Below, piece by piece: positions 9,905 to 46,510 of a stretch of DNA of 50,192 bases (position 1 is its first letter; the number at the start of each line of letters is the position of its first letter). Origin of the DNA: a phage; sequence record PZ445416.1. One strand, 5' to 3'. The translations under genes were made by a program, and so were the position numbers. The notes under the pieces were generated by a model. It saw only the letters and a list, made by a program, of their open reading frames with translations, did no database searches and was not told where the DNA came from.

Positions 9905-9926
9905 TCAACCAATCAGGAGAAACATC

Positions 9927-10244
9927 ATGGCTAAATTCAATTTCGTGTTGGGCCAGCTTCCAGACTTCAAACTTCCGGTGACGTTCACCATGCCAAACGG
10001 CGAGGATGCGACTATTATTTTTACAGTGCGCCACCTTTCCAGTAAAGAAGTGCAAGATATGTATGCGAAGCAGGGCGAAATGAATGATAGCGATTTCATC
10101 ACTAAGATCGCGTCAGGCTGGAATCTGGAAGAAGAATTTAACGAAGAGAATGCGCGCAAACTGGTACAGTATTATCCTTCCGCAGCATACAATCTGACGG
10201 CAACTTACATCAAGGCGCTCGCCGGACACCGAGCAAAAAACTAA
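9927..10244 (+). CDS. tail assembly chaperone (G-like)
   Basis: 105 aa, acidic, immediately upstream of the tape measure; ends in slippery heptamer A_AAA_AAC. Confidence 0.7.
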   Translation: MAKFNFVLGQLPDFKLPVTFTMPNGEDATIIFTVRHLSSKEVQDMYAKQGEMNDSDFITKIASGWNLEEEFNEENARKLVQYYPSAAYNLTATYIKALAGHRAKN

Positions 10245-10561
10245 AAAGGGCGGTTTATCTGTTATATCAGAAACCGCCGACAGAAGAGCAATTGCGATCG
10301 GTTGGCCTCAGTCTTTCTGACTATGAAGACGAGGAACCGGAAACGATAATCGGCGATACTGAAATGGTGAAGGCGTGGAATGTTTTTACGTCAATGCTCA
10401 CTCAGTGGAGAAGTTCAGGCGCTGGAGCTTATGGCCTTGACTATAATGTTTTGCCTATGTTGTTCAAAATCTATAAAATAGAAGATGAAGAACTGGCATT
10501 GCAGGACGTTAGGATCATGGAAGCGAAAGCGCTTGAAATGATTGCTAAGCAAAACAACTAA
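9927..10561 (+). CDS. tail assembly chaperone, -1 frameshift fusion product (G-T-like)
   Basis: The -1 frame is open from the slippery site (10235-10241) through 10561; an 8-bp stem GGCGGTTT/AAACCGCC begins 7 nt downstream. Confidence 0.55.
10235..10278 (+). other. programmed -1 ribosomal frameshift site (slippery heptamer plus stem-loop)
   Basis: A_AAA_AAC at 10235-10241 in the zero frame; stem 10249-10256 pairs with 10271-10278 around a 14-nt loop. Confidence 0.6.
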
Positions 10562-10600
10562 GCCGCCGTTTGGCGGTTTTTTCGTATATAGGGGGGTTAT

Positions 10601-13474
10601 ATGGTTGATAAGGTAGCAGGTCTGTCGCTTGACGTTGATGTGTCAACAGTGCAGCGCGCCGTCAAGTCACTGAAAGAGTTTTCAAAGGCCAACGACCAGG
10701 CCGCTGATTCTATGGGTTCTTTAATCAATGAGTCAGAGGTTGCAAAACAGAAGGCCAAAGAACACGCTGAACAACTCAAGCGCCAGAGAAAAGAGTATGA
10801 GGCCGTGGAGAAGGCAATCGATCCTACAGTATCAAAAATGGAAAGGTTGAAGATTGCGTCTCAGCAGCTTGATAAACTCTGGCAGCAGGGAGTCGTTCCG
10901 GATGAGACATTTTTCCGTTTGGGTGAAATGCTGGATCTGCAAAACGCAAAACTTGCTCGCAGCCGGGCTATGCTTACGGAAGAAGGTCAGGCGGCATTGC
11001 AGGAAGCGAAAGCAAAAGAGCAGGCGGCAGCACGAAGCAAGGCGTTCATGGATGCCCTGAATGGTCAAGTTAATGCGATCGGCAAGACTCATGCTGAATT
11101 GATGGAACTGAAAGCGGCTGAGCTTGGTTTATCGAAAGAAGCAGCACCACTAATCGCAAAACTTAAAGATCAAGGCCGGGCTATGAATGCAGCAGGTATT
11201 AGCGCCGGGGAATACAGGCAAGCAATGCGAATGCTTCCTGCACAGATTACCGACGTTGTTACATCTCTTGCGTCAGGTATGCCAGTTTGGATGGTTGCCA
11301 TCCAGCAAGGCGGTCAAATCAAGGACTCGTTCGGCGGGATCGGGAATACGTTTAAGGTATTGCTCAGCTATATTAATCCGGTCACAGTTGGCGTTGGTGT
11401 TCTTGTCGGTTCTTTAGGTCTTCTTGCGAAAGCTGGTTATGACTCTTACAAGTCAATAACCGATATGCAGAATGCGCTTATTGAGACTGGCGGTTATGCA
11501 GGTGTTACGGCTGAAGATCTTGATTCAGTGTCTAAAAAGATCGCGCAGACAAGTAACTCAACCATTGGGAGTATTCGCGAGATTGTAACGGAGTTGGCAA
11601 GTTCTGGTAAGTACACCCGAGAGCAGATCCAGAACATCACTAAGGCTACCGCAGAGTGGTCAGCGTCAACAGGAAAATCAGCAAGTCAAATTATTGCTGA
11701 GTTCGACAAAATCGCAAGTGATCCGGTAAAAGGTCTGAAGAAGTTAAACGAGCAATATAATTTCCTTGAAAAAGGGCAGCTTACCTATATCGATACATTA
11801 AGCCGGACGAAAGGAGAAACTGAGGCTGTATCAGAGGCTACCAAACTATTCGCAGACGTAATGGAAAAGCGAATGAAGTCGATCGCGGATAACGCTACTC
11901 CTCTGGAAAAGATGTGGAGCGATATTAAACAATGGGCTTCGGACGCGTGGGGATGGGTTGGTGATCATACGCTTGGTGCGCTAAACCTGATTATCGACGT
12001 TGTTCAGGGTACAGTGATTCAGGTTAAAATGATTCTTGCGAAGGGTGATGAGTACATCTCAAATTTTATCGCCTCAGCCATAAAGGCAACTCAGTCACTG
12101 CCTGGAATGAGTGATTTCGGCGCTGATGTGCTGAAGGAGCAGGAGAACATTGTAAAAAGTTCTCGCGACAACTACGATCAGTTAGCTTCAGAGCTTGACG
12201 CTATTAACGCTCGCGTAGAAAAAGGCGAGATGGGATACGTTGAAGCGATGAAGCAGCGTCGCACTCTTGAAAAGCAGTACAGCGAGGAAACTAAGGAAGC
12301 AATAAGGAAAGAAGCAGAAGAGATCGAGAAGCGAAACCGAGAACGAAATAAGCAGTCGAAAATTGTGCGCTCACCGACAGAGCAATTCGACAAGGAGTTA
12401 ATTTCACTCAAGGCTCAACTTAAGGTATTGCAGGAGCACAAGGAGATCGGTCAAAAACTTTCCGCGCAGAGAAAAGCGCTGTTTACGACCGAGGCGACGA
12501 TTGCTGTTCTTCGTGAAGCCAGTTCCAAGCGTCAGTTGTCTGCGGAAGAAAAAGCATTGTTGGCAAGTCAGGAGAAGGTTGTAGAACTTGCTAAACAGAA
12601 GGCTGAGATTGGCGATCAGATTGTCAAGCAACAGCAGTTGAACGCACTTACCGACAAATCACTGAAGTTTGTCAATGAGATGACGGCGGCGACGGAACAG
12701 CTTAACGCTTCACGAGGTCTTAGTACTCGCGACATGGAACGACAAGCTGAACTAGCTAAAATCACCACTGATTACATCAACTCCGGCGGCGGTGAAGGAG
12801 ACGAAAAACTCCAGAACATGATTAAGGCGCAAAATGATTACTACGCTGCGGAAGATGCCAAGCGAGCTGACTGGTTGGCAGGTGCTGAAAGTGCTTTTGC
12901 TGATTACGGTGATGCAGCAATGGATATGTACGGCAATGTTAACGAGATCGCGTCAAGTGCCCTTAACGGAATGTCAGATATGATGGTTCAATTTCTGACC
13001 ACAGGAAAAGCGAACTTTGAGGACTTTGCGAAAAATATCATCGGCATGATTATAAAGATGATTGCTCAGATGGTAATCTTCAATACGATCTCAGGCATGA
13101 TGGGCGGTAAGACGTGGAGCTTTGCTGGAGGGGCGTCGTCTGGTGCTTCTGCGGCATCACAGGCAACCCCTACGCCTGCCGTCTCTGGTTTTAGGTCTTT
13201 ATCTTCAGGCGTCGCTGTTACCTCGCTTGCTGCCGCTGCGGGTAGTGTTGCAACATCTGGATTTAACGCATCTAAATCAGCACCGAAGGCAGCAAACCAA
13301 TCAGCAGGCGGGACGGTCGTTGATGTTAGGGGTATGGAGGTTAAGGTTGATAACGGTTCAGATCCGAGAGGAATTTCTCAGGGCGTAGAAATGATGTTCA
13401 AAAAAATGATTCGCGAGTCTTGTTCGCAGGGCGGTGAGGTTTATAATTACATTCAGGAAAAAACAGGAGGCTAA
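10601..13474 (+). CDS. tail tape measure protein
   Basis: 957 aa, long coiled-coil-rich middle, Gly/Ala/Ser-rich hydrophobic C-terminal segment, canonical position after the chaperones. Confidence 0.85.
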
Positions 13475-13476
13475 TA

Positions 13477-13830
13477 ATGGCGACACTTGACACTTTCGGT
13501 TGGTGTACGCAGGTTCAAGGGGGCGGTGGCTCCCTTACCACTACCAATAATGACCGCTCCATCCAGTTTGGTAACGGATACATGCAGCTTGCGTCGTCTG
13601 GATTTAACACTACTCGACGCGAGTATTCAGTTGTCTATGCTGGGGAAGATTTCATGTCTGTTTACGACTTCTGTGACTCTCACCGCATTAAGCCGTTCGC
13701 ATGGACGCCGCCGGACGGTAAGGTCGGGGTATGGGTAGTAAAGCCTAACAGTTTGGGAGCGAAGCCAGTATCACGCGACGTGATGGAGATTAACGTCACG
13801 TTTATGGAACAGTTTACATCTATGGATTAA
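13477..13830 (+). CDS. minor tail protein (lambda M-like)
   Basis: 117 aa directly after the tape measure; RBS CAGGAGG. Confidence 0.55.
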   Translation: MATLDTFGWCTQVQGGGGSLTTTNNDRSIQFGNGYMQLASSGFNTTRREYSVVYAGEDFMSVYDFCDSHRIKPFAWTPPDGKVGVWVVKPNSLGAKPVSRDVMEINVTFMEQFTSMD

Positions 13831-14692: not shown

Positions 14693-15423
14693 TTAGTGCA
14701 AAAATTAAACTTGAAATTATGACTCACGCTCAGGAAGAATACCCCCGCGAATGCTGCGGGGTAGTCACCCAAAAGGGCCGCGTGCAAAAATACCATCGCA
14801 TTGATAATGTGCATCGTGATCCCGAGAATCATTTCATGATGGATGCTGTACAATACGCTTGCATTGAGGACGATGCGGAATCAACAACAATAGCAATTGT
14901 TCACAGCCACACAGGAGACGGGGCTACAACTCTACCAAGCGCTCACGATACGTGCATGTGCAACGAGATGGAAGTTACCTGGATTATTGTTAGTGTGCCG
15001 GAAGGGGATATGCGATTTGTGAAGCCGGAGAAATTGCCTCTGATTGGTCGTCCGTGGTCATTAGGTTCATTCGACTGTTACGGTCTTGTTATGGCGTGGC
15101 ACAAAGAGCACGGCGTAGAATTGCGCGATCGCCGATTGAATTTTGAATGGTGGAAACCTGAGTACGGAATTAATCTCTATCAGGATTATTACAAGCAGGA
15201 TGGCTTCGTTGAGATTCCAGATCAGAATAATCCGTCATTCGGTGATATGGTAATCATGCAGATAGGGCAAAACGTTCCGGTATGGAACCATGCAGGGATT
15301 TACCTGGGAGATAATCAGATCTTGCATCATGCCTTCGGCAAGCTATCTCGTCGTGATATTTATTCCGGATGGTATCAGGATCATACTGTTTTAATCGTTC
15401 GCCATAAGGATCTTAAATTATGA
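14689..15423 (+). CDS. tail tip assembly protein (lambda K-like: MPN/JAB plus NlpC/P60)
   Basis: JAMM-like HSHTGDGATTLPSAHD; cysteine-peptidase-like DCYGLV plus downstream His; ATGA overlap with upstream gene. Confidence 0.75.
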   Translation: MISAKIKLEIMTHAQEEYPRECCGVVTQKGRVQKYHRIDNVHRDPENHFMMDAVQYACIEDDAESTTIAIVHSHTGDGATTLPSAHDTCMCNEMEVTWIIVSVPEGDMRFVKPEKLPLIGRPWSLGSFDCYGLVMAWHKEHGVELRDRRLNFEWWKPEYGINLYQDYYKQDGFVEIPDQNNPSFGDMVIMQIGQNVPVWNHAGIYLGDNQILHHAFGKLSRRDIYSGWYQDHTVLIVRHKDLKL

Positions 15424-16096: not shown

Positions 16097-19000
16097 ATGA
16101 TTCAAAAAGTGATAAGTGGATCTAAGGGTGGGTCACAGAAGCCTCATAACCCAGTTGAGATGGAAGACAATCTAATCTCAATCAACAAAATCAAAATCCT
16201 GTTAGCTGTATCTGATGGTGAAATTGACGAAACATTCAGCCTAAAGCAGTTGATGTTTAACTCAGTTCCGGTGCAAAACGAGGATGGATCGTTCAACTTC
16301 GAAGGGGTAAAGGCTGAGTTCAGGCCGGGAACTCAGACGCAGGAATACATAAAGGGCATGGAAGATAGCTCCAGCGAGGTAACTGTAAATCGTGAGGTTA
16401 CTACCGATAACCCATACACGATCTCAGTAACCAACAAAACGCTGTCGGCAATCCGTATCAAAATGTTCATGCCTCGCGGCGTACGAATTGAAAGTAACGG
16501 CGATAAAAACGGCGTTCGCGTTGAGTACGAGGTGCAGCAAGCGGTTGATGGCGGTTCGTTTGAGACTGTTCTTACTGATGTAATCGAAGGCAAAACAATG
16601 TCGGGTTATGATCGAAGCCGTCGCGTAAACCTGCCTAACTTCAACAATCAGGTAATATTCAGAGTTGTTCGAAAGACTCCTGATTCCAATGACTCGAATG
16701 TCGTTGATGCAATCCAGGTAAGAAGCTATGCAGAGGTCATTGATGCCAAATTCCGATATCCTCTGACTGGTCTTCTTTTCGTAGAGTTCGATTCGAAGAT
16801 GTTCCCCAACCAGTTACCTACGATCTCAATTCGTAAGCGCTGGAAGATTGTAAACGTTCCGTCTAACTACGACCCAGAATCGCGAACATACAACGGCAAT
16901 TGGGATGGCACTTTCAAAAAAGCATGGACGAATAATCCGGCGTGGGTTCTTTATGACCTGATGATTAATCAGCGTTACGGCCTGGATCAGAAAGAGCTTG
17001 GTATCGCTGTCGATAAATGGGCGCTCTACGAGGCTGCGCAATATTGCGATCAGATGGTTCCTGATGGGAAGGGCGGGACGGAACCTCGATACCTTTGCGA
17101 CGTGATAATCCAGTCCCAGACTGACGCTTACAAGGTTATTCGAGATATTTGCTCAATCTTTCGAGGTATGAGCTTTTGGAATGGCGAAAGCATTTCGGTA
17201 ATCATCGACAGGCCGCGTGAACCTGCGTACATCTTCACTAACGACAACGTTGTTAATGGTGACTTCTCCTACACGTTCGCAAGCGAAAAGAGCATGTACA
17301 CGACGTGTAATGTGATGTTTGATGATGAACAAAACATGTATCAACAGGACGTTGAGCCAGTATTCGATCGTGAGGCTACTCTACGCTTCGGGAACAACGT
17401 AACGAGCATTACAGCGATCGGGTGCACTCGACGCAGCGAGGCTAACCGACGTGGGCGATGGATTCTGAAAACGAACCTACGCAGCACTACGGTAAACTTC
17501 GCTACTGGACTGGAAGGGATGATTCCGACAATCGGAGACGTGGTGGCAATATCTGATAACTTCTGGTCAAGTAACTTGACGATGAACCTGTCAGGGCGAT
17601 TGCTCGAAGTGTCAGGTAGTCAGATTTTCCTGCCGTTCCGCGTTGATGCGCGCGCAGGTGACTTTATTATCGTAAATAAGCCAGATGGCAAGCCCGTGAA
17701 GCGCACAATCTCAAGTGTTAGTGCGGATGGTAAGACCATAGAGATTAACATCGGCTTTGGCTTTCCTGTGAAGCCTAACACGGTATTCGCAATCGACCGT
17801 ACTGACATTGCGTTGCAGCAGTACGTCGTGACAAAAATCGACAAGGGCGATGATGATGAGGAATTTACCTACAAAATCACGGCGGTGGAGTACGATCCTA
17901 ACAAGTACGATGAAATTGATTACGGGGTTAACATCGACGACCGACCGACGAGCATCGTTGAGCCAGATCAGATCCCTAAGCCGAAAAACGTGAAAGTGTC
18001 CTCAGAGTCGAGAATCGTCCAGGGGATGAGCGTAGAAACGATGATTGTTAGCTGGGATAAAGTGCCGTACGCAGTTTTCTATGACGTACAGTGGCGAAAG
18101 GATAACGGCAACTGGCAAAACGTTCCGCAGACAGCAAACAAAGAGGTTTATGTTGAAGGGATTTACGCTGGCAACTATCAGGTTCGCGTTCGCTCCGTCG
18201 CTGGTTCGGGTACGACTTCAGGCTGGTCAAATATCGTCGCGGCAACATTGACGGGTAAACAGGGTGAGCCTGGCCGACCGATTAACCTTACAGCTACGGA
18301 TGATGTTGTTTTTGGCATCCGTACAAAATGGGGGTTCTCTGATGGTTCTGGAGATACGGCCTATACGGAGTTGCAACAGTCACCGGATGGAACAGTGGAT
18401 AACGCAAGTTTGCTTTCATTGATTCCGTATCCGCAGCATGAGTATTATCACTCACCGATGCCGGGAGGGAATATTGTGTGGTATCGGGTAAGGACAGTTG
18501 ACAGGATCGGTAACGTGTCTCAGTGGACTGATTTTGTCAGGGGCATGGCATCAACAAACGTTGACGATATCATCGGAGAGATTTCTGTCGATATCGAAAA
18601 CTCGCCGGGTTACGAGTGGCTTGTTGATAACGCAACCGACAACGCGTCGCAGAACGCAGCGAACGCAGAGGCAGCAATTGAGAACGCGCTGGCTAATGAC
18701 AAAGACGCGATCTACATGAAGAAGGAGAACGGAAAGCGAAAAGCGGAGTACACCAAATCACTGAAGCTAATTGCTGATGAGACTGAGGCGCGAGTAACGG
18801 CGGTTGAGCAATTGAGGGCGAGCTTTGGCGATCAGATTAGCGCAAGCAATAGTGAATTGCGTGAAGTTATCGCAACTGAGACAGGGGCGCTATCTCGTGA
18901 GATTGACCAACTCAAGGCAGAGATTGGTGATGATATTCAGGCAAGTTTGACCGATATCCGTGAAGCCATCGCGAACGAGACTGAGGCGAGAACGCAAGCT

Positions 19001-19516
19001 GACTTAACGTTAAGCGCGCGACTTGGGAATAACGAGGCAGCACTTTCTCAAAAACTTGACTCGTGGAGTAACGCCGATTCGACTGGTGCAATGTACGGCG
19101 TCAAGCTGGGTCTGAAATACAACGGCCAGGAATACAGCGCAGGAATGGCTATGTCTCTGATTGGTTCCGGGGCTGCGGTTAAAGCGCAAATTCTATTCGA
19201 AGCGTCACGATTTGCAATCATGACTGGAATGAACGGTCAGACTCAGTATCCTTTCGTTGTTGAAGGTAATCAGGTGATTCTTAATAGTGCCATCATTAAG
19301 AACGGATTCATCACGAATGCGATGATTGGTAATGTTATTCAATCGAATAACTATGTCGTTAACAAGGCTGGCTGGAGACTTGACAAGGGAGGTACATTTG
19401 AAAACTACGGAAGTGATGGTGAGGGTGCAATGAAGCAAACTAATACCACAATATCTGTTAGGGATGCGAGTGGTCGCCTGAGGGTTCAGATTGGCAGGTT
19501 GACTGGCTCATGGTAA
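16097..19516 (+). CDS. tail tip / host-specificity protein (lambda J-like)
   Basis: 1139 aa, largest tail-tip ORF, with central fibronectin-III-like repeats and a C-terminal receptor-binding region; followed by terminator. Confidence 0.8.
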   Translation: MIQKVISGSKGGSQKPHNPVEMEDNLISINKIKILLAVSDGEIDETFSLKQLMFNSVPVQNEDGSFNFEGVKAEFRPGTQTQEYIKGMEDSSSEVTVNREVTTDNPYTISVTNKTLSAIRIKMFMPRGVRIESNGDKNGVRVEYEVQQAVDGGSFETVLTDVIEGKTMSGYDRSRRVNLPNFNNQVIFRVVRKTPDSNDSNVVDAIQVRSYAEVIDAKFRYPLTGLLFVEFDSKMFPNQLPTISIRKRWKIVNVPSNYDPESRTYNGNWDGTFKKAWTNNPAWVLYDLMINQRYGLDQKELGIAVDKWALYEAAQYCDQMVPDGKGGTEPRYLCDVIIQSQTDAYKVIRDICSIFRGMSFWNGESISVIIDRPREPAYIFTNDNVVNGDFSYTFASEKSMYTTCNVMFDDEQNMYQQDVEPVFDREATLRFGNNVTSITAIGCTRRSEANRRGRWILKTNLRSTTVNFATGLEGMIPTIGDVVAISDNFWSSNLTMNLSGRLLEVSGSQIFLPFRVDARAGDFIIVNKPDGKPVKRTISSVSADGKTIEINIGFGFPVKPNTVFAIDRTDIALQQYVVTKIDKGDDDEEFTYKITAVEYDPNKYDEIDYGVNIDDRPTSIVEPDQIPKPKNVKVSSESRIVQGMSVETMIVSWDKVPYAVFYDVQWRKDNGNWQNVPQTANKEVYVEGIYAGNYQVRVRSVAGSGTTSGWSNIVAATLTGKQGEPGRPINLTATDDVVFGIRTKWGFSDGSGDTAYTELQQSPDGTVDNASLLSLIPYPQHEYYHSPMPGGNIVWYRVRTVDRIGNVSQWTDFVRGMASTNVDDIIGEISVDIENSPGYEWLVDNATDNASQNAANAEAAIENALANDKDAIYMKKENGKRKAEYTKSLKLIADETEARVTAVEQLRASFGDQISASNSELREVIATETGALSREIDQLKAEIGDDIQASLTDIREAIANETEARTQADLTLSARLGNNEAALSQKLDSWSNADSTGAMYGVKLGLKYNGQEYSAGMAMSLIGSGAAVKAQILFEASRFAIMTGMNGQTQYPFVVEGNQVILNSAIIKNGFITNAMIGNVIQSNNYVVNKAGWRLDKGGTFENYGSDGEGAMKQTNTTISVRDASGRLRVQIGRLTGSW

Positions 19517-20556: not shown

Positions 20557-20579
20557 GCCCCTTGCGGGGCTTTTCTTTT
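20557..20579. terminator. bidirectional terminator between late block and cor
   Basis: GCCCCTTGCGGGGC hairpin flanked by T-tract downstream; lies between convergent genes. Confidence 0.7.
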
Positions 20580-20805
20580 ATATCGAGCAATCGTGAGATT
20601 TGAAGTTTTTCTCTGATACATAGTTGAAGGAGAATGGGTATCCAGCACGCAATACCATCTCCTTTCCGCGCATCTTAGAGCCAAAAACGTAAACCGAGTA
20701 CTCCGCGCCACCTGATTCATAAATTGCCGTGCAAGTACGCTCAGGCATCGATGAGCAACCAGTCAGGATGAATGCCGAAGCGATAATGGTGATTAACTTT
20801 TTCAT
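20578..20805 (-). CDS. cor: Cor-like superinfection-exclusion lipoprotein
   Basis: 75 aa with lipoprotein signal MKKLITIIASAFILTGC; own near-consensus promoter; position after tail genes as in T1/phi80-type phages. Confidence 0.6.
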   Translation of the reverse strand: MKKLITIIASAFILTGCSSMPERTCTAIYESGGAEYSVYVFGSKMRGKEMVLRAGYPFSFNYVSEKNFKSHDCSI

Positions 20806-21329: not shown

Positions 21330-22394
21330 ATGTTCCAGGTATTCACATCAAGTCAGCTTTCTAATGACGAGTATCATAGCAACGAAGGTTGGGCGGCAGA
21401 GTATGTAAGCGGTTCGAGCCTTGCAGAAATTTATCAGACTTGCCCGGCTAACTGGCGATTCAAGAAGAACGAGACGACTAAAGCGCTGGAGTTTGGTACT
21501 CAGTCGCACACCAACTTTGAGAGCCGAGATCTGTTTACTGCATCGTATGCGCGTTGTCCGGCTCCGGCAGAGTTTAAAGATCTCATTACTTCGCAGGCGG
21601 CGCTGGCAGCAAAATTAAAATCTTTTGGCCTGAAAGGTACATCCGGTAAGCAGTACCCGGACCTCATCAAAATGATGGTTGATTGTGGCGAAGACCTTAA
21701 CGTTCAATACCTGATTGAACTGATCGCAGAGGCTGAGGCTCGCGCTGAAGGAAAGAAACTCGTCGACGCTGATAAATACGACGCCTGCATGAAGATGAGA
21801 GCTATACTTGAACAGAACCCCGATCATGAAGCGTGCATCAACAGCGAAACAGCGCAGCGTGAAATCTCAATCTTCGGTGAAATATCCGGCGTCAAGGTTA
21901 AGGTTCGACTAGATCATCTTGACTATAAAGAGAATGTACCAGGTCGTGTACTGACTGGTTATGATGAGAATGGTGATCCGGTATTTGAAGACGTAATTTT
22001 CCCGGAAGCACTGATTATCACAGATTTCAAAACTACGATGAGCGCCAACCCGTTAGAGTTCCCGAGACTGGCATACAATCACGGTTATTACCTGAAGATG
22101 GCATTGCAGCATGACCTGCTACGTCGCGCAATCCAGGCTGGCGCTTTTGAAGGAAACTTCCCGGAAGATATTCCGATCGTAGTTCGATTGCTTGCGCAGG
22201 AGAAAAAAGAGCCTTATATCGCACTGGCTTACCGTATGACTATGGAGCAAATCAGGATCGGTCGTAACCAGTACATTAGCGTAGTCCACACTTACAAGGC
22301 TTGCTCTGAAATGGATGTTTGGCCTGGGTACGCTGGCGACGCAAGCGAGATCGAACTTGAAACGCCATCATGGGTGCGTTACCAAAATAAGTAA
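21330..22394 (+). CDS. PD-(D/E)xK exonuclease (RecE/YqaJ-like)
   Basis: Motifs VRLDHLD and IITDFKT fit the D...(D/E)xK nuclease signature; followed by Erf and SSB. Confidence 0.6.
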   Translation: MFQVFTSSQLSNDEYHSNEGWAAEYVSGSSLAEIYQTCPANWRFKKNETTKALEFGTQSHTNFESRDLFTASYARCPAPAEFKDLITSQAALAAKLKSFGLKGTSGKQYPDLIKMMVDCGEDLNVQYLIELIAEAEARAEGKKLVDADKYDACMKMRAILEQNPDHEACINSETAQREISIFGEISGVKVKVRLDHLDYKENVPGRVLTGYDENGDPVFEDVIFPEALIITDFKTTMSANPLEFPRLAYNHGYYLKMALQHDLLRRAIQAGAFEGNFPEDIPIVVRLLAQEKKEPYIALAYRMTMEQIRIGRNQYISVVHTYKACSEMDVWPGYAGDASEIELETPSWVRYQNK

Positions 22395-22468
22395 ACGGCA
22401 CAAATAGCTAAACAAATAATTAATGAGGTGTTATAATGCACCTCATACACCAATCAGGAGAAGTTAAT

Positions 22469-25673: not shown

Positions 25674-25702
25674 GGCAATAAAAAACCGCCCGAAGGCGGT
25701 TA
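25674..25702 (-). terminator. rho-independent terminator after primase (minus strand)
   Basis: Minus strand CCGCCTTCGGGCGG hairpin then TTTTTTATT, immediately after the primase stop. Confidence 0.7.
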
Positions 25703-27148: not shown

Positions 27149-27161
27149 CTTAATTCTCCTG

Positions 27162-27204: not shown

Positions 27205-27242
27205 ATCGTAAACGATACAACGATTCAAAGGATTAAATAGCC

Positions 27243-34983: not shown

Positions 34984-36552
34984 TTAACCCATCAGTCGAG
35001 GATTGATGAAAACAATATCATCAATCCGGCAAGTGTAGTTCATCTCTTCGAGCGTTATCAGCAGGCTGTCGATTCGCTCAGATACTTTCTGTTGACCGTT
35101 GAACGGCGTAACGTTACGGCACTTTGCAACAATGCTATGAATCGGAGCGCGCCCTTTATTCTTCTTTGCGATCTCAGTGATAACATCAATCAGCTTACGA
35201 GATTCAGCCTCATCACCAGCATACCCGGCGGCGCTTGCGGACGACAGATAAGTCCTGGAAAGCTCATTGAAAATCATAATCGCTTCCTGCATTGTCTCAA
35301 GATCAATCTCACGATTAGATCGGTTCGGTGATTCACCCTCCCAATTCTTGATCGTGTGAAGAACTGAAGCAATGCGCAAGGCGTGCTTATCGAACTTACC
35401 GAGATGACCGCGTAGCATTGAGTGAGAGTATTTGCCCCCGGCGGCGAAATCAGGCTCCATCGCCTGGCGAGCAAGGTTTAATTCACGCATAGCGTTACGG
35501 CTTACAGAGAGAACAACGTTGTCTTCCTTCATGATGTTGTGAACGAGTCTGTAATATTTGCTAACCAGTCCGCGATCGACTTCTTTATACAATGCATCAC
35601 CATTTTCATCACAAAGAATACGAGTACCTAAAAGCGGTTCCTCGCGAACCAATAGGAAACGCTCAGATACACCGATACCGCGCTGGCCTGCGTCCATGAT
35701 ACCCTTGATTGTTTCATCCTGCGCAATGACGCAGATCGAACCGACCGGGCAAAGAGATAAGTTGTTGTCTTGGTTTGAACGCGCGACCTCCATATGGTTT
35801 TTATCCCACGCCTTAAGGATAAGTTCGCTGTTTGATTTCTTATCAGAGCCGCCATAAGTCAGGCCGAGCAATGTGTTGATTGCTGTCGCCTCATCAGAGA
35901 TTACTGAGAAGTGACCTTGAACAGCCGCCACCTTCGCAAGACCTTCAGGTGTAGGATCTGATACAGCGAAAACAATATCAGCCATCTTCTTGATCTTTTC
36001 TTCCAGTTTTTCCTTGTCCTCGTATAGCGCTGCCGTCGTGTTACCCTTCGGGTCGTTTTTAATTTCCTTCTCGACCTGACGTAGCTGACTGGTTAAACGG
36101 ATACGTTCCTTTTTTCGCTCTTCATTCAGTCGCTGAATCTCTGCGCGCATAGGCGTAATCGCTGCGGAGTTAATCGCAGATTTACCTGTTGACGGTGGCT
36201 GGCTGATTACCATGTAAAGAGCGGTTGGTTGTTCTTCTCCGTGATATTGCACCCAAAACTTCCCGAGCATCGCGGCTGATATGCACCCAATGAAATGAGC
36301 GTACGCAGACGAAACAGGGAACTGTACAGACTCGGCCTTTGCTTTTGCATATTCGAATACCAGGTTATCGCCACCTAACGAAATCAGAGGGAACTTATCG
36401 TTGCCGCTATTGATATCGATCGGATCTTGCCAAAATGAAACTGAGTCACCATAGCTGTTTTCACGAATTGCTATCGCCACCGGATTAACTCCAGTGCTAT
36501 TGGCGATCTCAATAATCTGTTGGTAATTCAGTTTTGGCTTAATATTAAACAT
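34984..36552 (-). CDS. P-loop NTPase of unknown function
   Basis: Start moved to MFNIK after AAGGAG; Walker A-like QPPSTGKSA, then long coiled-coil and helical regions; no further family assignment possible. Confidence 0.6.
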   Translation of the reverse strand: MFNIKPKLNYQQIIEIANSTGVNPVAIAIRENSYGDSVSFWQDPIDINSGNDKFPLISLGGDNLVFEYAKAKAESVQFPVSSAYAHFIGCISAAMLGKFWVQYHGEEQPTALYMVISQPPSTGKSAINSAAITPMRAEIQRLNEERKKERIRLTSQLRQVEKEIKNDPKGNTTAALYEDKEKLEEKIKKMADIVFAVSDPTPEGLAKVAAVQGHFSVISDEATAINTLLGLTYGGSDKKSNSELILKAWDKNHMEVARSNQDNNLSLCPVGSICVIAQDETIKGIMDAGQRGIGVSERFLLVREEPLLGTRILCDENGDALYKEVDRGLVSKYYRLVHNIMKEDNVVLSVSRNAMRELNLARQAMEPDFAAGGKYSHSMLRGHLGKFDKHALRIASVLHTIKNWEGESPNRSNREIDLETMQEAIMIFNELSRTYLSSASAAGYAGDEAESRKLIDVITEIAKKNKGRAPIHSIVAKCRNVTPFNGQQKVSERIDSLLITLEEMNYTCRIDDIVFINPRLMG

Positions 36553-36581
36553 CACAATAAACTCCTTAGTTGACGGTGTAA

Positions 36582-36624
36582 ATGATACACCGCCAATGGT
36601 ACACGCGTTTTGCAAAAAGTGCTA
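36582..36624 (-). promoter_or_regulatory. Box-A cassette (minus strand) upstream of P-loop gene
   Basis: Minus strand TAGCACTTTTTGCAA, 22 bp, TATCAT, IR GGTGTA/TACACC. Confidence 0.55.
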
Positions 36625-36628: not shown

Positions 36629-37045
36629 TTATAAGTATTTGGCCTCAAAGGTTGTGCCGTCTGCGATACTAAAACCAACCTCTTCGCGAAATAAGGTCCA
36701 GCGACAACCATCTTCATCAAAGATGTAACCAGCTACGCCACCGAGAGCGCGACCGCTTTCAACCTGGTAACGCTTGCCAACTTTGAATGATTTTTTCATT
36801 GGGTTGCGATGGTCAAGCCCGGTGCACTTGAGCGTCTTTGTTTTCAACTCAGTGAACTTCGCGAAGAAGATTTCATCAGATCCGTGAATCTGTAATTCAT
36901 CATGCTTTTCAAGTTTTAAATACTTCCCGCATTTTAATTTTACTTCGCGAGTGCCATCATAGCGCTCACGACCTTTGTATAGGTTGTTTACTTCAAATCC
37001 TGTGATTTTATCTGCGTGAGTGCATTTCAGTTTGATGGATTTCAT
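36629..37045 (-). CDS. hypothetical protein
   Basis: 138 aa, RBS CAGGAG, downstream of Box-A cassette 37082-37124. Confidence 0.5.
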   Translation of the reverse strand: MKSIKLKCTHADKITGFEVNNLYKGRERYDGTREVKLKCGKYLKLEKHDELQIHGSDEIFFAKFTELKTKTLKCTGLDHRNPMKKSFKVGKRYQVESGRALGGVAGYIFDEDGCRWTLFREEVGFSIADGTTFEAKYL

Positions 37046-37081
37046 TTCGTTAACTCCTGATTGGTTATCTTGAATAAGGTC

Positions 37082-38100: not shown

Positions 38101-38117
38101 TACTCCCCCTTAACCAG

Positions 38118-38318
38118 TCAGGATAGCTTTCGCGCTTCATCAATGATAACAGGTTCGAGGCGCTCAAGTCGAACGCGGAACGTGTTCATAAATCCCTCGT
38201 TGTTCTTCAATAATTCGAAGGCATCCGTAGCTTCAATTGCGCTATTTCCCATGTAGGCAACTACTCTCTTTTTCGTCTTGCGTGAGATCGCAACCACGCG
38301 GTAGATATTATCACTCAT
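38118..38318 (-). CDS. hypothetical protein
   Basis: Start at MSDNIY; ATGAGTGA overlap with the upstream stop. Confidence 0.45.
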   Translation of the reverse strand: MSDNIYRVVAISRKTKKRVVAYMGNSAIEATDAFELLKNNEGFMNTFRVRLERLEPVIIDEARKLS

Positions 38319-38682
38319 ACAATGCCTCCTTAACACGATCCGCAATGCAGGAGTTTACAGTGATTGAGTAGTTAGCCACGCCCCATAATGCAATATTGCC
38401 AAGCTCGGTACGCATTGATGGATTGTTAAGCTGGATTATTGTCTCTCCAGTATCATTATCAATAAAGCGAGACACGCCTAAATGGTCCACAGCGCGGGTT
38501 ACTCGGTTCACGCACTCCATTGCATCACTTACGCCGTAATAAGCGCTTAGAGCGGCTCTCACTCCATTCTCTTGCTTGTTGTAAATCTTGCGCGCAATGT
38601 TCTCGATCGCTACATTCTCTTTCTCGTCAGTCTGGATTGCTGTGCTTGCTGAGAAGTCTAGGTCTACGAATTGTTTAAACAT
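38311..38682 (-). CDS. hypothetical protein
   Basis: Start moved to MFKQF, at the canonical distance from Box-A cassette 38714-38756 with leader ACGAGG. Confidence 0.5.
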   Translation of the reverse strand: MFKQFVDLDFSASTAIQTDEKENVAIENIARKIYNKQENGVRAALSAYYGVSDAMECVNRVTRAVDHLGVSRFIDNDTGETIIQLNNPSMRTELGNIALWGVANYSITVNSCIADRVKEALYE

Positions 38683-39130: not shown

Positions 39131-39173
39131 ATTATGCCAAATCACACCGATCGAGTTTTAACAAAAAGTGCTA
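39131..39173 (-). promoter_or_regulatory. Box-A cassette (minus strand)
   Basis: Minus strand TAGCACTTTTTGTTA (stop of the methyltransferase-like gene inside box), 22 bp, CATAAT, leader CCTCATCGAAACGAGA. Confidence 0.6.
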
Positions 39174-39862
39174 TCCGCGATCGCTTTAAAAAATCCCCTG
39201 GGTGATAGGGATCGTATCAACTTAGTTTTGGCAGATTTGCCGCCTAGCTTGCTGTGCTGCGCAGAGTACCCGTCAGGCAGGCTTACAGGTTTTCTTTCAG
39301 GCATGACAAAATCGTCAGAGGTCCACAGACAAGTTTTCTTCGGGTAAGCATCGCGCGGCGCAATATACATAGGGAACCAGGGATGCGCGTCATTCTCAGG
39401 AAGATAGCCGCCATACTCCCAGGGATTGAAGGAGTGATTTGGTTTTCTCCACACAGACGACAGGACGCTAACCGGATTCTCAATGATGTAAGTCACACCC
39501 AGGCTATCGCCAATGTTCGCGGCAATCCTTGCGGTGGCAACGGCCTTTTCCTGGAATAACGGATCGCGTTCACGCTTTCTTGCGAAGTGGGCGGCACCGC
39601 TAACAGCCAGGTCGGTACACGGAGGGAAAGCCATAATGAAATCCGGCTTGCCATACACACCAGCGATAGCATCACGCTCAAACGCTGCGTCAATGAACAC
39701 GTTCACATACTCAATGTTCGGATGCTCCACCCGGGCATTGTACTTTGCATAATCCCCGTGATCGGCTCCGTCAAAGTTGAAGCACATCACCTTGTGACCT
39801 TGCTTAGCCAGTTCATGACCAGCAAGACCGGAACCGTCGAATAGCGACCAGATTAATTTCAT
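39158..39862 (-). CDS. C5-cytosine methyltransferase-like protein
   Basis: Start moved to MKLIW after AGGAG; motif order FDGSG (I), FPPCTDLAVSG (IV, Thr in place of the usual Gln), IIENP (VI); short at 234 aa. Confidence 0.55.
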   Translation of the reverse strand: MKLIWSLFDGSGLAGHELAKQGHKVMCFNFDGADHGDYAKYNARVEHPNIEYVNVFIDAAFERDAIAGVYGKPDFIMAFPPCTDLAVSGAAHFARKRERDPLFQEKAVATARIAANIGDSLGVTYIIENPVSVLSSVWRKPNHSFNPWEYGGYLPENDAHPWFPMYIAPRDAYPKKTCLWTSDDFVMPERKPVSLPDGYSAQHSKLGGKSAKTKLIRSLSPRGFFKAIADSTFC

Positions 39863-39895
39863 TGCAAATCTCCTACTGATTGGTTGATGTGATGA

Positions 39896-39939
39896 ATCAT
39901 ACACTGCCAGCCTGACCAAGTCGTTAGCAAAAAATGCTA
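39896..39939 (-). promoter_or_regulatory. Box-A cassette (minus strand) upstream of C5-methyltransferase-like gene
   Basis: Minus strand perfect palindrome TAGCATTTTTTGCTA, 23 bp, TATGAT, leader CCAATCAGTAGGAG. Confidence 0.6.
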
Positions 39940-40548: not shown

Positions 40549-41064
40549 ATGAGCAATACCAATCAGGAATTAAAAATCACCGATATGATTCGCCTAACCT
40601 GTGATGCAATGTACCGCGACAAAGGCATGACCGAGTTCTCTTTCGTGGCTGATGATATGGCCCTAGAAGCAGCGCGATTCTACTTCCGTGGCCAGGAGGT
40701 AAGCGATGCCGATCTTGAATCTGCCGCTGCCGGATGGGTGGACCAGAACCAGGGGGAGGTAGAGAAGCGATTCAAATCTGCTTTCATCACTCCAATCATT
40801 ACCCGACACTTTTGCAAGTATGGCAAGGTGGCAAAGGTGAAGGTAGGCCGGAATGACGCGGCAATCACGATGATAACCGTTATCGTTACAGACGAAGAGG
40901 TTCCAGTGAAGAAACGCCGTAGCCGGAAAAAAGTTAGCCTGGCCGACTGCCTGGACTCGTTTGATGTTGATGTTAGCAAGCTATCAGATAGCGAGTTAAT
41001 GGTTCGTGATGTGAATGAGATCGTGCGCCAGATGAAAGCGCATATTGAAAAGTGTGGACTGTAA
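40549..41064 (+). CDS. hypothetical protein (first gene of rightward early cluster)
   Basis: 171 aa, RBS AAAGAGGA, directly downstream of the AT-rich hub. Confidence 0.5.
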   Translation: MSNTNQELKITDMIRLTCDAMYRDKGMTEFSFVADDMALEAARFYFRGQEVSDADLESAAAGWVDQNQGEVEKRFKSAFITPIITRHFCKYGKVAKVKVGRNDAAITMITVIVTDEEVPVKKRRSRKKVSLADCLDSFDVDVSKLSDSELMVRDVNEIVRQMKAHIEKCGL

Positions 41065-41070: not shown

Positions 41071-41316
41071 ATGAGTATGAGCAAGATTAAGCATGACGCC
41101 CTGAAAGGTATCTTGATGCGACTAAACCCAGGCGAAGCATTCCAGCTTAACCCCGAGACGTTTGGATTCAATGGTGATTATCGTACAACCTTCGAATTTG
41201 TAAGGTATGTAAAGAAAGAGTTTGGATTCGAAGTTATTCACGCAGGTCTTATCAATGGCATCCAGACATTCATCTTTAAGCCAAATGAGATTCGTTGCTT
41301 CACGATGATGAAATAG
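41071..41316 (+). CDS. hypothetical protein
   Basis: 81 aa, RBS AAGGAGAG; its stop TAG is the first triplet of Box A at 41314. Confidence 0.5.
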   Translation: MSMSKIKHDALKGILMRLNPGEAFQLNPETFGFNGDYRTTFEFVRYVKKEFGFEVIHAGLINGIQTFIFKPNEIRCFTMMK

Positions 41317-41356
41317 CACTTTTTGTTAAAGCCCGGTCGAGCGGATCGGGTATTAT
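41314..41356 (+). promoter_or_regulatory. Box-A cassette
   Basis: TAGCACTTTTTGTTA, 22 bp, TATTAT, leader CATCGACACGATACAGAGGA. Confidence 0.6.
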
Positions 41357-41388
41357 CTTCTCATCGACACGATACAGAGGAATCGAAG

Positions 41389-41583
41389 ATGGAAATGCAA
41401 ATTGATGTGGTTGTTGTTCAGCGCGACTCAACTCATGAAAAGGGTCTGTTCAAGAAAGGAACCGAAATCACGATCGACCTTGAGGATATGGTTGCATATC
41501 ACTCGGGCCTTACCTGGAACGTGGTGCGCGTAGGCAGCGACTACAAACTCAAAGGCTTTAACACTTACTTTGCGGAGGTTTAA
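41389..41583 (+). CDS. hypothetical protein
   Basis: Start moved to MEMQID after CAGAGGAA, at canonical cassette distance. Confidence 0.5.
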   Translation: MEMQIDVVVVQRDSTHEKGLFKKGTEITIDLEDMVAYHSGLTWNVVRVGSDYKLKGFNTYFAEV

Positions 41584-41585: not shown

Positions 41586-42056
41586 ATGGCGACAATTACC
41601 GTATTCCTGGCTAAAGATGAGATTGATGGCGAAATGTCATTCTTCGCGTTTGAGCACAAGACCGGATCGCACTGGCACATGTACAGTCACTACACGGTTA
41701 TTGATATCAACTCATACGCTTGCGATTCGCTAAATGAAAAACTTGGTCGATTCATTGAGCATGTTAAATTAAGAGATGGTGGCGAGTGGAATGATAAGCA
41801 TGAAGGTCGACGCATGTGTGACATGATTGATCCTGTTTATCTGGAGTCGTTCGAGCTTGATGCTGATGTTGCCATTAAGGTGAGAAAGTCGGGTGAATTG
41901 TTGCCAGGGATGCGTGTGCTGACTGGTTACTCGGGCCGTAAGGTGTGGCGCACTGTATCCAAGATTCGCCAGCGTTCGGCAACATGCTATAGCGTATTCT
42001 TTGATGATGGTTGGAATATGATTTCCGGCAGTGAGGTAAAGTATCTCACCAAATAG
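41586..42056 (+). CDS. hypothetical protein
   Basis: 156 aa; stop TAG is the first triplet of Box A at 42054. Confidence 0.5.
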   Translation: MATITVFLAKDEIDGEMSFFAFEHKTGSHWHMYSHYTVIDINSYACDSLNEKLGRFIEHVKLRDGGEWNDKHEGRRMCDMIDPVYLESFELDADVAIKVRKSGELLPGMRVLTGYSGRKVWRTVSKIRQRSATCYSVFFDDGWNMISGSEVKYLTK

Positions 42057-42096: not shown

Positions 42097-42134
42097 TACC
42101 CCATCAAAACGAGATACCAATCAGAGGATTCACC

Positions 42135-42365: not shown

Positions 42366-42371
42366 ATAATA

Positions 42372-43636: not shown

Positions 43637-43677
43637 GCACGAATTGTTAAAAGGGGATTTGTCCTGACTGGTATAAT
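43635..43677 (+). promoter_or_regulatory. Box-A cassette
   Basis: AAGCACGAATTGTTA, 22 bp with IR GGGGATT/AATCCCC, TGgTATAAT. Confidence 0.6.
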
Positions 43678-44403: not shown

Positions 44404-44443
44404 GGCCTTATTGAAGCAAGGCAACCAATCAGAGGAATCAGCT

Positions 44444-45556: not shown

Positions 45557-45609
45557 TTTCAATTGGGAATCGGCTCTGAACGGTTCCCCTTTCTTTTGGA
45601 GAAAACACT

Positions 45610-45720: not shown

Positions 45721-45923
45721 CAGCAGAAGATGCAGCGCGTGACGCAGTGGAAGGAATGCGCCCAAATACCTCCAGAATCGCACACTACTACAAATCTGAG
45801 GTGTCGGCAGTGCAATTGGTCCACGAAATTTTAATGCTACCACAAGTCGATTCAGCGCGCGTGGTGACGTGCTTAAAAAATTATTTTTGCATCACTATTA
45901 AAACGAATAGCACGAATTGCTAA
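45705..45923 (+). CDS. hypothetical protein
   Basis: 72 aa; stop TAA lies inside Box A at 45908-45922. Confidence 0.35.
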   Translation: MATIMTAEDAARDAVEGMRPNTSRIAHYYKSEVSAVQLVHEILMLPQVDSARVVTCLKNYFCITIKTNSTNC

Positions 45924-45950
45924 AACCTATCAAGGTGAATGCGCTATGAT
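45908..45950 (+). promoter_or_regulatory. Box-A cassette
   Basis: TAGCACGAATTGCTA, 22 bp, TATGAT. Confidence 0.6.
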
Positions 45951-45980
45951 TCCCCTACACCAACAAACGAGGAAACGATA

Positions 45981-46427
45981 ATGAAACACTTAATCTGCAT
46001 TGAAGCGCCTAACGATGAATACACTCTGCACGGCATTGGAATGTTCAAAGGTCACTACATGACAGCAAGTATTCATGATTCGCGTTGCGTCAATGGCGAT
46101 CTGATGATTACGTCAAAAGAAGTAAATCCGTACATTATGCAGAATCTTGGCAATAACGAATATATGGCCTATGGATGCAACGCAGTGTATAAGCACATTA
46201 AGATCCGCAAGCGCGTCGTGCGTGCATTCAAGAAGATTGCAATGAAGTACTGGAAGATGAGCAAGAAGGACGCCGGGCGCTGGGCGCGTAATGTTGCTGA
46301 CGCATACTTCTACCGTAACGGTGAGTCCTGCTACTTCCTGATCGATGAAATTATGGAAAACTACGGCGGCGACTTCAGCCAGTGCAGCTTTGACGATTGG
46401 GTTAATTATGAGATCAGTTGCTGGTAA
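45981..46427 (+). CDS. hypothetical protein
   Basis: Start moved to MKHLI after ACGAGGAAACG; Cys/Tyr/Trp-rich; stop followed immediately by Box A at 46428. Confidence 0.5.
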   Translation: MKHLICIEAPNDEYTLHGIGMFKGHYMTASIHDSRCVNGDLMITSKEVNPYIMQNLGNNEYMAYGCNAVYKHIKIRKRVVRAFKKIAMKYWKMSKKDAGRWARNVADAYFYRNGESCYFLIDEIMENYGGDFSQCSFDDWVNYEISCW

Positions 46428-46470
46428 TAGCACGAATTGCTAAAACTTGCTCAAGGGTATTTGATAGAAT
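46428..46470 (+). promoter_or_regulatory. Box-A cassette upstream of HAD phosphatase gene
   Basis: TAGCACGAATTGCTA, 22 bp, TGaTAGAAT, leader CCAATCAGAGGA. Confidence 0.6.
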
Positions 46471-46510
46471 GCCCTTCGTTGAGTTAAGCAACCAATCAGA
46501 GGAATAAATC

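Follow-up and report, generated by a model that had tools for sequence, protein, structure and literature searches.

A private, strand-specific and evenly spaced DNA word, ACC-N2-TCAG, in the genomes of T1-like phages

The genomes of T1 and its relatives in the Drexlerviridae carry a short asymmetric DNA word, ACC-N2-TCAG, in which seven fixed bases enclose a free spacer of two, and which is present family-wide, selected, strand-specific and evenly spaced. It is described here from a stretch of 50,192 nucleotides of phage DNA (sequence record PZ445416.1; the whole stretch is called the window), which comes from a T1-like coliphage (Tunavirus). Both halves of the window match T1, IME167, phi2013 and IME18 at approximately 94% identity over nearly the full length, and the large terminase gene starts at position 1. 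The word has 51 copies in the window (23 on the plus strand and 28 on the minus strand) where approximately 7 are expected; it is a DNA-level, orientation-specific signal under selection and it is private to the phage. Its properties suggest a hitherto undescribed signal for a machine that travels along DNA.

The two commonest 9-mers of the window are ACCAATCAG, with 15 exact copies, and its one-base variant ACCAGTCAG, with 13, each found on both strands. Written together as ACCARTCAG they have 28 copies against 0.59 expected, a number that none of 100 dinucleotide shuffles reaches, so that chance is not the cause. A first-pass annotation of this DNA had noticed the word as a conserved leader ahead of at least seven start codons. 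The remaining one-mismatch variants of ACCAATCAG stand at chance level in the window; in the count of all variants, ACCGCTCAG, ACCTTTCAG and ACCGTTCAG are frequent as well. The true unit is the bipartite ACC-N2-TCAG, which ranks first among gapped words in an unbiased de novo scan (log10 P = -26). Each of its seven fixed positions is nearly exclusive (position 1 counts A 51, C 0, G 1, T 4), and a spacer of two bases alone is enriched, the lengths 0, 1 and 3-6 giving 2-12 copies each and no enrichment. The commonest fourth base, within the spacer, is A (30 of 51), and there are weaker preferences in the flanks, for A before the word and for G followed by a purine after it. The 51 copies are the following (position, strand, form and context):

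782-790 (-): ACCAGTCAG; terminase large subunit gene, antisense
1066-1074 (+): ACCGCTCAG; terminase large subunit gene, sense
3233-3241 (-): ACCAATCAG; intragenic, antisense; CTG-ATT-GGT = Leu-Ile-Gly
4387-4395 (+): ACCATTCAG; intragenic, sense
5554-5562 (-): ACCGCTCAG; intragenic, antisense
6299-6307 (+): ACCGCTCAG; major capsid gene, sense
7790-7798 (-): ACCGCTCAG; intragenic, antisense; next (+) copy 43 bp away
7833-7841 (+): ACCAGTCAG; intragenic, sense, phase 1
9760-9768 (-): ACCTTTCAG; major tail gene, antisense
9908-9916 (+): ACCAATCAG; leader, 10 nucleotides before ATG 9927 (tape-measure chaperone)
11057-11065 (-): ACCATTCAG; tape measure gene, antisense
12867-12875 (-): ACCAGTCAG; tape measure gene, antisense, phase 1
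13296-13304 (+): ACCAATCAG; tape measure gene, sense, phase 1
15040-15048 (-): ACCAATCAG; intragenic (tail tip), antisense
16763-16771 (-): ACCAGTCAG; J-like tail fibre gene, antisense
17586-17594 (+): ACCTGTCAG; J-like tail fibre gene, sense
19157-19165 (-): ACCAATCAG; J-like tail fibre gene, antisense
20758-20766 (+): ACCAGTCAG; antisense in 20578-20805 (-), the T1 cor counterpart
21630-21638 (-): ACCTTTCAG; exonuclease VIII gene, antisense
21951-21959 (-): ACCAGTCAG; exonuclease VIII gene, antisense
22449-22457 (+): ACCAATCAG; leader, 11 nucleotides before ATG 22469 (Erf recombinase)
23328-23336 (-): ACCAGTCAG; SSB gene, antisense
24325-24333 (-): ACCTTTCAG; side tail fibre gene (-), sense
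24685-24693 (+): ACCGTTCAG; side tail fibre gene (-), antisense
25741-25749 (-): ACCGTTCAG; primase gene, sense
27798-27806 (-): ACCAATCAG; SNF2-type helicase gene, antisense
28383-28391 (+): ACCTTTCAG; SNF2-type helicase gene, sense
29477-29485 (-): ACCAATCAG; VRR-NUC gene, antisense; next (+) copy 80 bp away
29557-29565 (+): ACCAGTCAG; VRR-NUC gene, sense, phase 2
31289-31297 (-): ACCAATCAG; intragenic, antisense
31789-31797 (+): ACCGATCAG; SbcD-like exonuclease gene, sense
33834-33842 (-): ACCGCTCAG; spanin gene, antisense
34987-34995 (+): ACCCATCAG; 3' end of DUF3987 helicase gene (-), antisense
36085-36093 (-): ACCAGTCAG; DUF3987 helicase gene, sense
37057-37065 (-): ACCAATCAG; leader, 11 nucleotides before ATG 37045 (138-aa protein, first in helicase operon)
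38113-38121 (+): ACCAGTCAG; across the stop of the frame 38118-38345 (-), antisense
39268-39276 (+): ACCCGTCAG; second methyltransferase gene (-), antisense; DNA without T1 counterpart
39876-39884 (-): ACCAATCAG; leader, 13 nucleotides before ATG 39862 (methyltransferase not in T1)
40558-40566 (+): ACCAATCAG; codons 4-6 of the frame 40549-41064, sense
41101-41109 (-): ACCTTTCAG; intragenic, antisense; DNA without T1 counterpart
41919-41927 (-): ACCAGTCAG; intragenic, antisense; DNA without T1 counterpart
42116-42124 (+): ACCAATCAG; leader, 10 nucleotides before ATG 42135
43664-43672 (-): ACCAGTCAG; intergenic, opposite strand within promoter spacer (TTGTTA ... CTGACTGGTATAAT)
44424-44432 (+): ACCAATCAG; leader, 11 nucleotides before ATG 44444
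45576-45584 (-): ACCGTTCAG; intergenic, against local transcription
46491-46499 (+): ACCAATCAG; leader, 11 nucleotides before ATG 46511 (polynucleotide kinase)
47441-47449 (-): ACCGTTCAG; intragenic, antisense
47765-47773 (+): ACCGCTCAG; intragenic, sense
48095-48103 (+): ACCTGTCAG; intragenic, sense
48848-48856 (-): ACCGCTCAG; intergenic, against local transcription
49235-49243 (+): ACCAGTCAG; intragenic, sense

Gene names are those of the T1 GenBank record (L001), which annotates ribosome binding sites, promoters and terminators and contains no annotation that corresponds to ACC-N2-TCAG. By our own calls of open reading frames (ORFs), 41 of the 51 copies lie inside ORFs, 18 in sense and 23 in antisense and in all three phases; the copy at 20758 lies additionally in the cor counterpart. 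The intragenic copies encode Leu-X-Gly, Thr-X-Gln, Asp-Trp, Gln-Ser and others. A shuffle that preserves the proteins and the codon usage of each gene gives 19.2±2.9 copies (maximum 28, in totals that include approximately 11 intergenic copies left unshuffled) against the real 51, and this shortfall, together with the use of every frame and both orientations, rules out codon or dipeptide bias as the cause. Neither is the word a piece of a longer repeat or mobile element, given that conservation ends at -1 and +1/+2 and that the NN spacer evolves like the flanks. No hairpins of the kind found at primosome assembly sites occur near the sites, and the folding energies around them equal those of controls.

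Comparison of aligned positions between the window and other phages shows purifying selection on exactly the seven fixed positions, in any frame or orientation. The comparison with T1 gives an identity of 99.0% for the fixed bases, 93.0% for the NN spacer and 92.7% for the flanks; of 43 sites, 41 are kept, against an expectation of 25. At the greater distance of Hanrivervirus, the fixed positions are 85% identical against 68% for the flanks, and 9 of 17 sites are kept against 1.2 expected. At one homologous site (782 in the window, 9726 in T1) the spacer switches between A and G with the word kept. The window also contains a block of about 3 kb (approximately 38.7-42.1 kb) without a T1 counterpart, and there the word occurs at its usual density.

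The spacing of the copies is as distinctive as their number. The gaps between all 51 have a coefficient of variation (CV) of 0.58, against 0.97 for random positions; none of 5000 random sets is as even, and the largest gap is 2167 bp. When each strand is considered alone, the CV is 0.45 on the plus strand (mean gap 2190 bp) and 0.32 on the minus strand (mean gap 1780 bp, maximum 2819 bp), and for each of them none of 3000 random sets, with a CV of 0.94-0.95, is as even. Taken together, the two strands show no more regularity than would a pair of regular series that are independent of each other (shift test, p = 0.14). The regularity belongs to each strand separately, and it is for this reason that neighbouring copies alternate in orientation at 41 of 50 pairs, where 25 would be expected (p < 2e-4). 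Copies on the same strand are at least 321 bp apart, and the closest pairs on opposite strands are separated by 43 and 80 bp.

The same arrangement is found in other members of the family. T1 has a CV of 0.65 and alternation at 34 of 46 pairs, figures that are not independent of those of the window; the Veterinaerplatzvirus genome has per-strand CVs of 0.54 and 0.44 and alternation at 16 of 21. Across 63 loci from outside Tunavirus, alternation is seen at 433 of 676 pairs (344 expected) and the CV lies below the null in 62 of the 63, although these loci are interrelated, so that their figures illustrate the pattern and are no test of it. The one Webervirus genome shows even spacing of its 21 exact copies taken together (CV 0.51, p = 0.0005), with alternation that is not significant (12 of 20, p = 0.23). 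The separate even spacing of the two orientations points to a process that tracks along one strand, in both directions and over the whole genome, and the reader is probably an enzyme of this kind. Replication forks and end resection fit, because both run both ways, while transcription and packaging run one way in each region.

The word is enriched in every whole Drexlerviridae genome examined, four in addition to the window (T1, 47 copies; Hanrivervirus, 29; Webervirus, 21; Veterinaerplatzvirus, 22; 5-7 expected in each). All of the 80 primase-anchored IMG/VR loci carry it, at 2.9-10 copies per 10 kb against 0.1-1.8 for scrambled half-site controls, and most terminase-anchored Drexlerviridae loci are also enriched. 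The seven positions and the spacer length are the same in every clade examined, and the density declines with distance from T1. Two 50-kb stretches of E. coli K-12 contain 9 and 5 copies, against 9-10 expected, and T7 contains 14 against 7.5, with neighbouring spacers equally common, that is, with no specific enrichment; a host-derived signal is excluded by these counts. Neither pYD38-A, a Vibrio phage (Roufvirus; 6 copies), nor phage IME207 (Shuimuvirus; 9 copies) is enriched, and they contain no other evenly spaced asymmetric word, their top oligomers being strand-biased hexamers with a CV of approximately 1. Both share with the window the primase (at approximately 30% identity), both helicases, VRR-NUC and exonuclease VIII, and IME207 also has Erf; a tie between the word and the replication module as a whole is therefore unsupported.

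As for the function of the word, which we infer from these properties, our tentative preference is for a Chi-like mark of self. Chi (GCTGGTGG in E. coli, 5-8 nucleotides in other bacteria) is a short asymmetric word, over-represented several-fold, that is active in one orientation, is read on an unwound strand by a travelling enzyme (RecBCD or AddAB) and labels DNA as self against degradation. The information content is similar (seven bases against the eight of Chi), and both words are asymmetric and over-represented in the genome that would be protected, here with 51 copies against approximately 7 and with E. coli at chance. The differences are that ACC-N2-TCAG is enriched in a virulent phage and not in its host, that it is bipartite with a free NN, that its sequence is unrelated, and that its two orientations are equally frequent and interleaved instead of co-oriented with replication. 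E. coli Chi itself has no copies in the window or in T1. To our knowledge the DNA of T1-type phages contains no unusual base. It has been reported that T1 and TLS degrade host DNA, by genes that are not known, and that they lack a phage DNA polymerase (PMC11447400). The Chi-like mark is favoured because it belongs to a known class of over-represented oriented words and explains the enrichment relative to the host, and because it would address the problem of how T1 and TLS, for which no means of protection is known, destroy the DNA of the host and not that of the phage.

The mechanism would be as follows, and it is put forward with some doubt. A processive helicase-nuclease, which could be a phage product or the RecBCD of the host with its specificity altered by a phage protein, would start at DNA ends or breaks and degrade up to a correctly oriented word; the word would be read in one orientation, likely on a single unwound strand, by an enzyme moving either way. 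At the word, degradation would stop and the end would be passed to the recombination-dependent replication of the phage (Erf, exonuclease VIII, SSB). Phage DNA would offer a correctly oriented word within approximately 2-4 kb of any point in either direction, and host DNA, with the word at chance level, about 1/6 to 1/10 of the phage density, would be consumed. A strand-tracking enzyme would in this manner heed a private word placed every ~2 kb on both strands instead of the Chi of the host, so that the host chromosome would be destroyed and chemically ordinary phage DNA spared and recombined, and the same single-strand reader might tune translation by binding the word in the seven mRNA leaders.

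Several observations weigh against the Chi-like mark. The SNF2 helicase, VRR-NUC and exonuclease VIII also occur in the Roufvirus and Shuimuvirus phages that lack the word, and no RecBCD- or AddAB-type helicase-nuclease is recognisable among the window proteins by Pfam and PHROGs. The word does not resemble E. coli Chi, and 14 mosaic breakpoints among Tunavirus genomes lie no nearer to sites than chance, a sample with little power. Webervirus has no more than 3-5 copies per 10 kb, and the lowest density, 2.6-2.8 per 10 kb, is that of F20-group phages in their terminase-side regions, where no other word was found to replace it; any requirement for the word is therefore graded and not absolute. 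Finally, even spacing on each strand is predicted alike by attenuation of a nuclease and by priming or loading, and the strong preference for leader positions is not predicted by a Chi-like model.

No candidate reader is tied to the word by computation. Those that the window offers are the following:

25700-26635 (-): stand-alone T7-gp4-type primase, candidate reader, with zinc ribbon and catalytic domain (Pfam PF08273, E 5.5e-16)
34984-36615 (-): DUF3987 helicase/ATPase, candidate partner, flanked by small proteins at 34572-34979 and 36629-37045
31540-32691 (+): SbcD/Mre11-like exonuclease, candidate, conserved in every genus with the motif (59-72% identity) and missing from relatives without it
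27243-29674 (+): SNF2/ResIII helicase and overlapping VRR-NUC nuclease gene, candidate, both also in motif-less relatives

The two small proteins at 34572-34979 and 36629-37045 are called helix-turn-helix (HTH)-like in the T1 GenBank record. The SbcD-like exonuclease, a Cro/C2-like protein, these two HTH-like proteins and SSB are present in all motif-bearing genera and undetected in motif-less relatives. Searches of PDB sequences with the two HTH-like proteins and the primase gave no matches, and Pfam and PHROGs on approximately 40 early proteins showed no obvious reader.

A role in lagging-strand priming or replisome loading is nearly as likely as the Chi-like mark, although it is also held with doubt. 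The T7-gp4-type primase and the DUF3987 helicase would start primers, or reload, at the word; a primer pppACC... would be copied from the template 5'-CTGANNGGT-3', with a site on each strand every ~2 kb for forks moving in either direction. Each strand by itself has an even series of sites, and their spacing of 1.8-2.2 kb matches the lengths of bacterial and phage Okazaki fragments. The zinc-ribbon primase encoded by the phage is of the T7 type, and its AlphaFold model (pLDDT 89.9) has T7 gp4 primase (probability 0.97-1.0) and the DnaG core as its best PDB fold matches, with TM scores of only ~0.3. It is well known that T7 and T4 primers start with pppAC and that the best T7 primers are ACCC and ACCA; the word begins with ACC and its fourth base is mostly A. 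In the absence of a phage DNA polymerase, moreover, primase and helicase are the only parts of the replisome that the phage supplies. Across the 80 loci the density of the word follows the similarity of the primase to that of T1, a correlation that is inseparable from the overall phylogeny.

The length of the word speaks against priming. The sites of T7 gp4, T4 gp61 and DnaG are read on the single-stranded template of both strands and are trinucleotides in a loose context; we know of no characterised DnaG- or T7-type primase that reads anything other than a trinucleotide, so that a requirement for seven of nine bases would be without precedent and would bring no obvious advantage. Known primase sites are neither enriched nor evenly spaced (the preferred pentamers of T7, computed in T7 itself, have a CV of approximately 1), whereas ACC-N2-TCAG is enriched 7-fold. 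Phages with primases ~30% identical and the same replication module lack any evenly spaced asymmetric word, and in Webervirus the per-strand spacing would be 5-6 kb.

The duplex-binder, mark or nick and leader explanations that follow each fit the data less well than the Chi-like mark or priming. The word may be bound as duplex DNA by a sequence-specific protein with a role in organising, condensing or regulating the genome, although this is rather improbable. A word of 9 bp with 7 specified is within the typical range of a single DNA-binding domain, and there are candidates in the two HTH-like proteins (34572-34979 and 36629-37045) and the Cro/C2-like protein (26696-27220), all of which follow the distribution of the motif; one of the HTH-like proteins has a leader copy, which would allow autoregulation. 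Such a protein, however, has no need of separate even spacing on the two strands. If orientation were ignored, random thinning of an even series would give a per-strand CV of approximately 0.8 (our own estimate, from the CV of the union) instead of the observed 0.32-0.45, and no alternation would be expected. The sites do not gather at promoters or around a putative origin, and the palindromic promoter repeat described below is a better candidate target for the Cro-like protein.

It is unlikely that the word is a site at which DNA is marked covalently, by a phage methyltransferase or some other modifying enzyme, or cut, by a site-specific nickase like that of T5. Asymmetric bipartite words do resemble the recognition sequences of Type I, IIG and III enzymes; these phages encode Dam, to which the window adds a second methyltransferase, and T1 has HNH endonucleases. 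Yet the second methyltransferase is not in T1, which has 47 copies of the word; the Dam enzyme, a match to the T1 Dam family, is weak or undetectable in Veterinaerplatzvirus, where the word nevertheless persists; and no cognate methyltransferase thus co-occurs with it, unlike in restriction-modification systems. The HNH genes vary across Drexlerviridae, T5 nicks on one strand only, and targets of restriction and modification are normally avoided, not enriched 7-fold.

Two observations concern methylation in its own right. The sequence GATC is in mild excess in the window (242 against 196 expected) and in T1, in larger excess in Webervirus (311 against 192), and strongly depleted in the Veterinaerplatzvirus genome (62 against 178), in which the match to the Dam gene is weak and partial. 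The second DNA methyltransferase of the window (39158-39919, minus strand; phrog_757, E 1.5e-83, with no match in Pfam) lies within the block of ~3 kb without T1 counterpart and has relatives in Hanrivervirus and Webervirus genomes and none in T1.

The least probable explanation is that of the first-pass annotation, which had seen in the word an extended leader before a set of genes and had interpreted it as a shared translational or RNA-stability element. The leader copies before the starts at 9927, 22469, 37045 (minus), 39862 (minus), 42135, 44444 and 46511 are all present. They end 10-13 nucleotides before the start codons and run into the Shine-Dalgarno (SD) sequence (CAGGAG, CAGAGGA or CAGTAGGAG), all of them have an AA spacer, and seven sense copies 8-16 nucleotides upstream of starts, against 0.36 expected from the phage's own density of the word (Poisson P ~1e-7), support the claim that the leader is non-random and goes beyond what ribosome binding needs. 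The observation is thus real and the position just 5' of the SD is preferred, but the description was incomplete: the other 44 of the 51 copies lie within genes or in intergenic DNA elsewhere, about half of them antisense to transcription. Only 7 of 51 copies lie in a 5' untranslated region (UTR), in sense and at a fixed distance from a start, and the share of leaders is 5 of 47 in T1 and 3-19% in other Drexlerviridae clades. Two of the seven, at 44424 and 46491, sit in near-identical promoter-leader cassettes (44369 and 46436), a likeness that agrees with a common leader and also means that these two are not independent; further genes behind the same promoter family have leaders without the word. 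A translational or RNA-stability element fails to explain the word as a whole because of the antisense and intragenic copies (23 are antisense within genes), their conservation and their even spacing on each strand.

The leaders may instead be the cheapest placement of the word, since the SD supplies the preferred G-purine 3' flank and UTRs are free of coding constraint. By analogy, the leader copies may also be bound as RNA by the same single-strand reader, in a second use that would resemble the translational autoregulation of T4 gp32 and gp43. Phage-private words of ~13 bp with many copies per genome are known from mycobacteriophages, in the start-associated sequences (SAS) of Cluster K and the stoperators of Cluster A. 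The SAS lie immediately upstream of start codons, as do the seven leader copies; both kinds, however, are intergenic and co-oriented with transcription, whereas ACC-N2-TCAG is mostly intragenic and is found in either direction.

DNA uptake sequences (the USS of Haemophilus and the DUS of Neisseria) are 9-12 nucleotides long, over-represented hundreds-fold, and lie in genes in several frames; USS are reportedly also unusually evenly spaced, as Karlin et al. are said to have found in 1996. ACC-N2-TCAG shares the over-representation, the intragenic positions in several frames and the even spacing, but the uptake sequences are bacterial and work in either orientation. An uptake sequence is excluded here, given that the host is not enriched above chance and that orientation matters; we know of no sequence-specific DNA uptake in E. 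coli.

A search of the literature on the word, its degenerate forms and related topics found no description of it, although the 2004 T1 genome paper (PMID 14972552) may contain an earlier remark. The 2024 re-annotation of TLS (PMC11447400), whose authors cite the T1 genome paper as earlier work of theirs, does not mention it. The only dispersed repeat previously described for TLS, T1, Rtp and Rogue1 is the 21-nucleotide Drexlerviridae promoter repeat aaATAGCACnnnTTGnTAAAA (German et al., 2024; PMC11447400), which occurs upstream of some of the genes with leader copies. The two are distinct, for the repeat is intergenic, follows the direction of transcription and lies ~50-75 nucleotides before start codons.

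T1 belongs to the seven classical T phages, and members of the Drexlerviridae rank with the commonest phages of E. coli and Klebsiella. How these phages spare their own DNA during host degradation, where replication starts and what the primase does are open questions in the T1 family (PMC11447400), and a selected, oriented and evenly spaced word gives a concrete handle on them: it can be mutated, transferred to plasmids or offered as bait to find its reader. A Chi-like word would amount to a code of self and non-self DNA that belongs to the phage and needs no base modification; if it is a priming signal, the primase would be the first of its class with a long recognition sequence. Either way, synonymous recoding or engineering of these phages (for example, for therapy) could destroy the word unknowingly.

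In the window, the promoter repeat is found at 6124, 9887, 16075, 22395, 25620, 29671, 30694, 31026, 32682, 34445, 36607, 37622, 38739, 39156, 41313, 42053, 43073, 44360, 45907, 46427, 47800 and 49610, and those copies that were examined share bases with the -35 hexamer (TTGCTA or TTGTTA) of phage promoters. aaATAGCACnnnTTGnTAAAA fits the consensus of the E. coli mar/sox/rob box, AYnGCACnnWnnRYYAAAY (PMC3709825), with 23 matches in the window at no more than one mismatch, five of them perfect, against 1.0 expected. The proposals made in the TLS paper were a stoperator, an enhancer site and an UP element, and a marbox was not among them (PMC11447400); judging from the sequence, the host activators Rob, MarA or SoxS may activate the promoters that carry the repeat. 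Within it there is an inverted repeat, TAGCA-N5-TGCTA (25629, 30703, 32691, 38748 on the minus strand, 44369, 45916, 46436 and 47809), which is also present in T1 (L001) and in the records L028 and L029 and is a possible operator of the Cro/C2-like protein (26696-27220, minus); in T1, TAGCANNNNNNNCTA has 20 copies against 0.8 expected.

Directly upstream of the erf leader copy (start 22469) lies another inverted repeat, TGAGGTG-ttataat-GCACCTCA (22424-22447), whose loop resembles TATAAT; it could be a combination of terminator and promoter, or a regulated hairpin. In pYD38-A (L033), TTATNATAA is a palindrome with 10 positions, which count as 20 when both strands are taken (3 expected); it is evenly spaced with a CV of 0.49 and may serve Roufvirus as an operator or promoter element of dispersed type.

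Among the genes of the window that differ from T1, the 660-aa ORF at 23617-25599 (minus), adjoining the primase, encodes a side tail fibre whose C-terminus carries a Peptidase_S74 chaperone domain. Its resemblance to T1 ORF26 is confined to the N-terminal 43%, which suggests, on sequence comparison, that the receptor-binding part has been swapped. The 86-aa product of 41323-41583 (plus) matches Pfam PF25180, 'Phage antiviral trigger protein Gp54' (E 4e-35), and is not in T1. Lastly, CGCCGCC/GGCGGCG has 29 copies in the whole of the window against 5.7 expected, an excess that is probably due to structural proteins rich in Ala and Gly.

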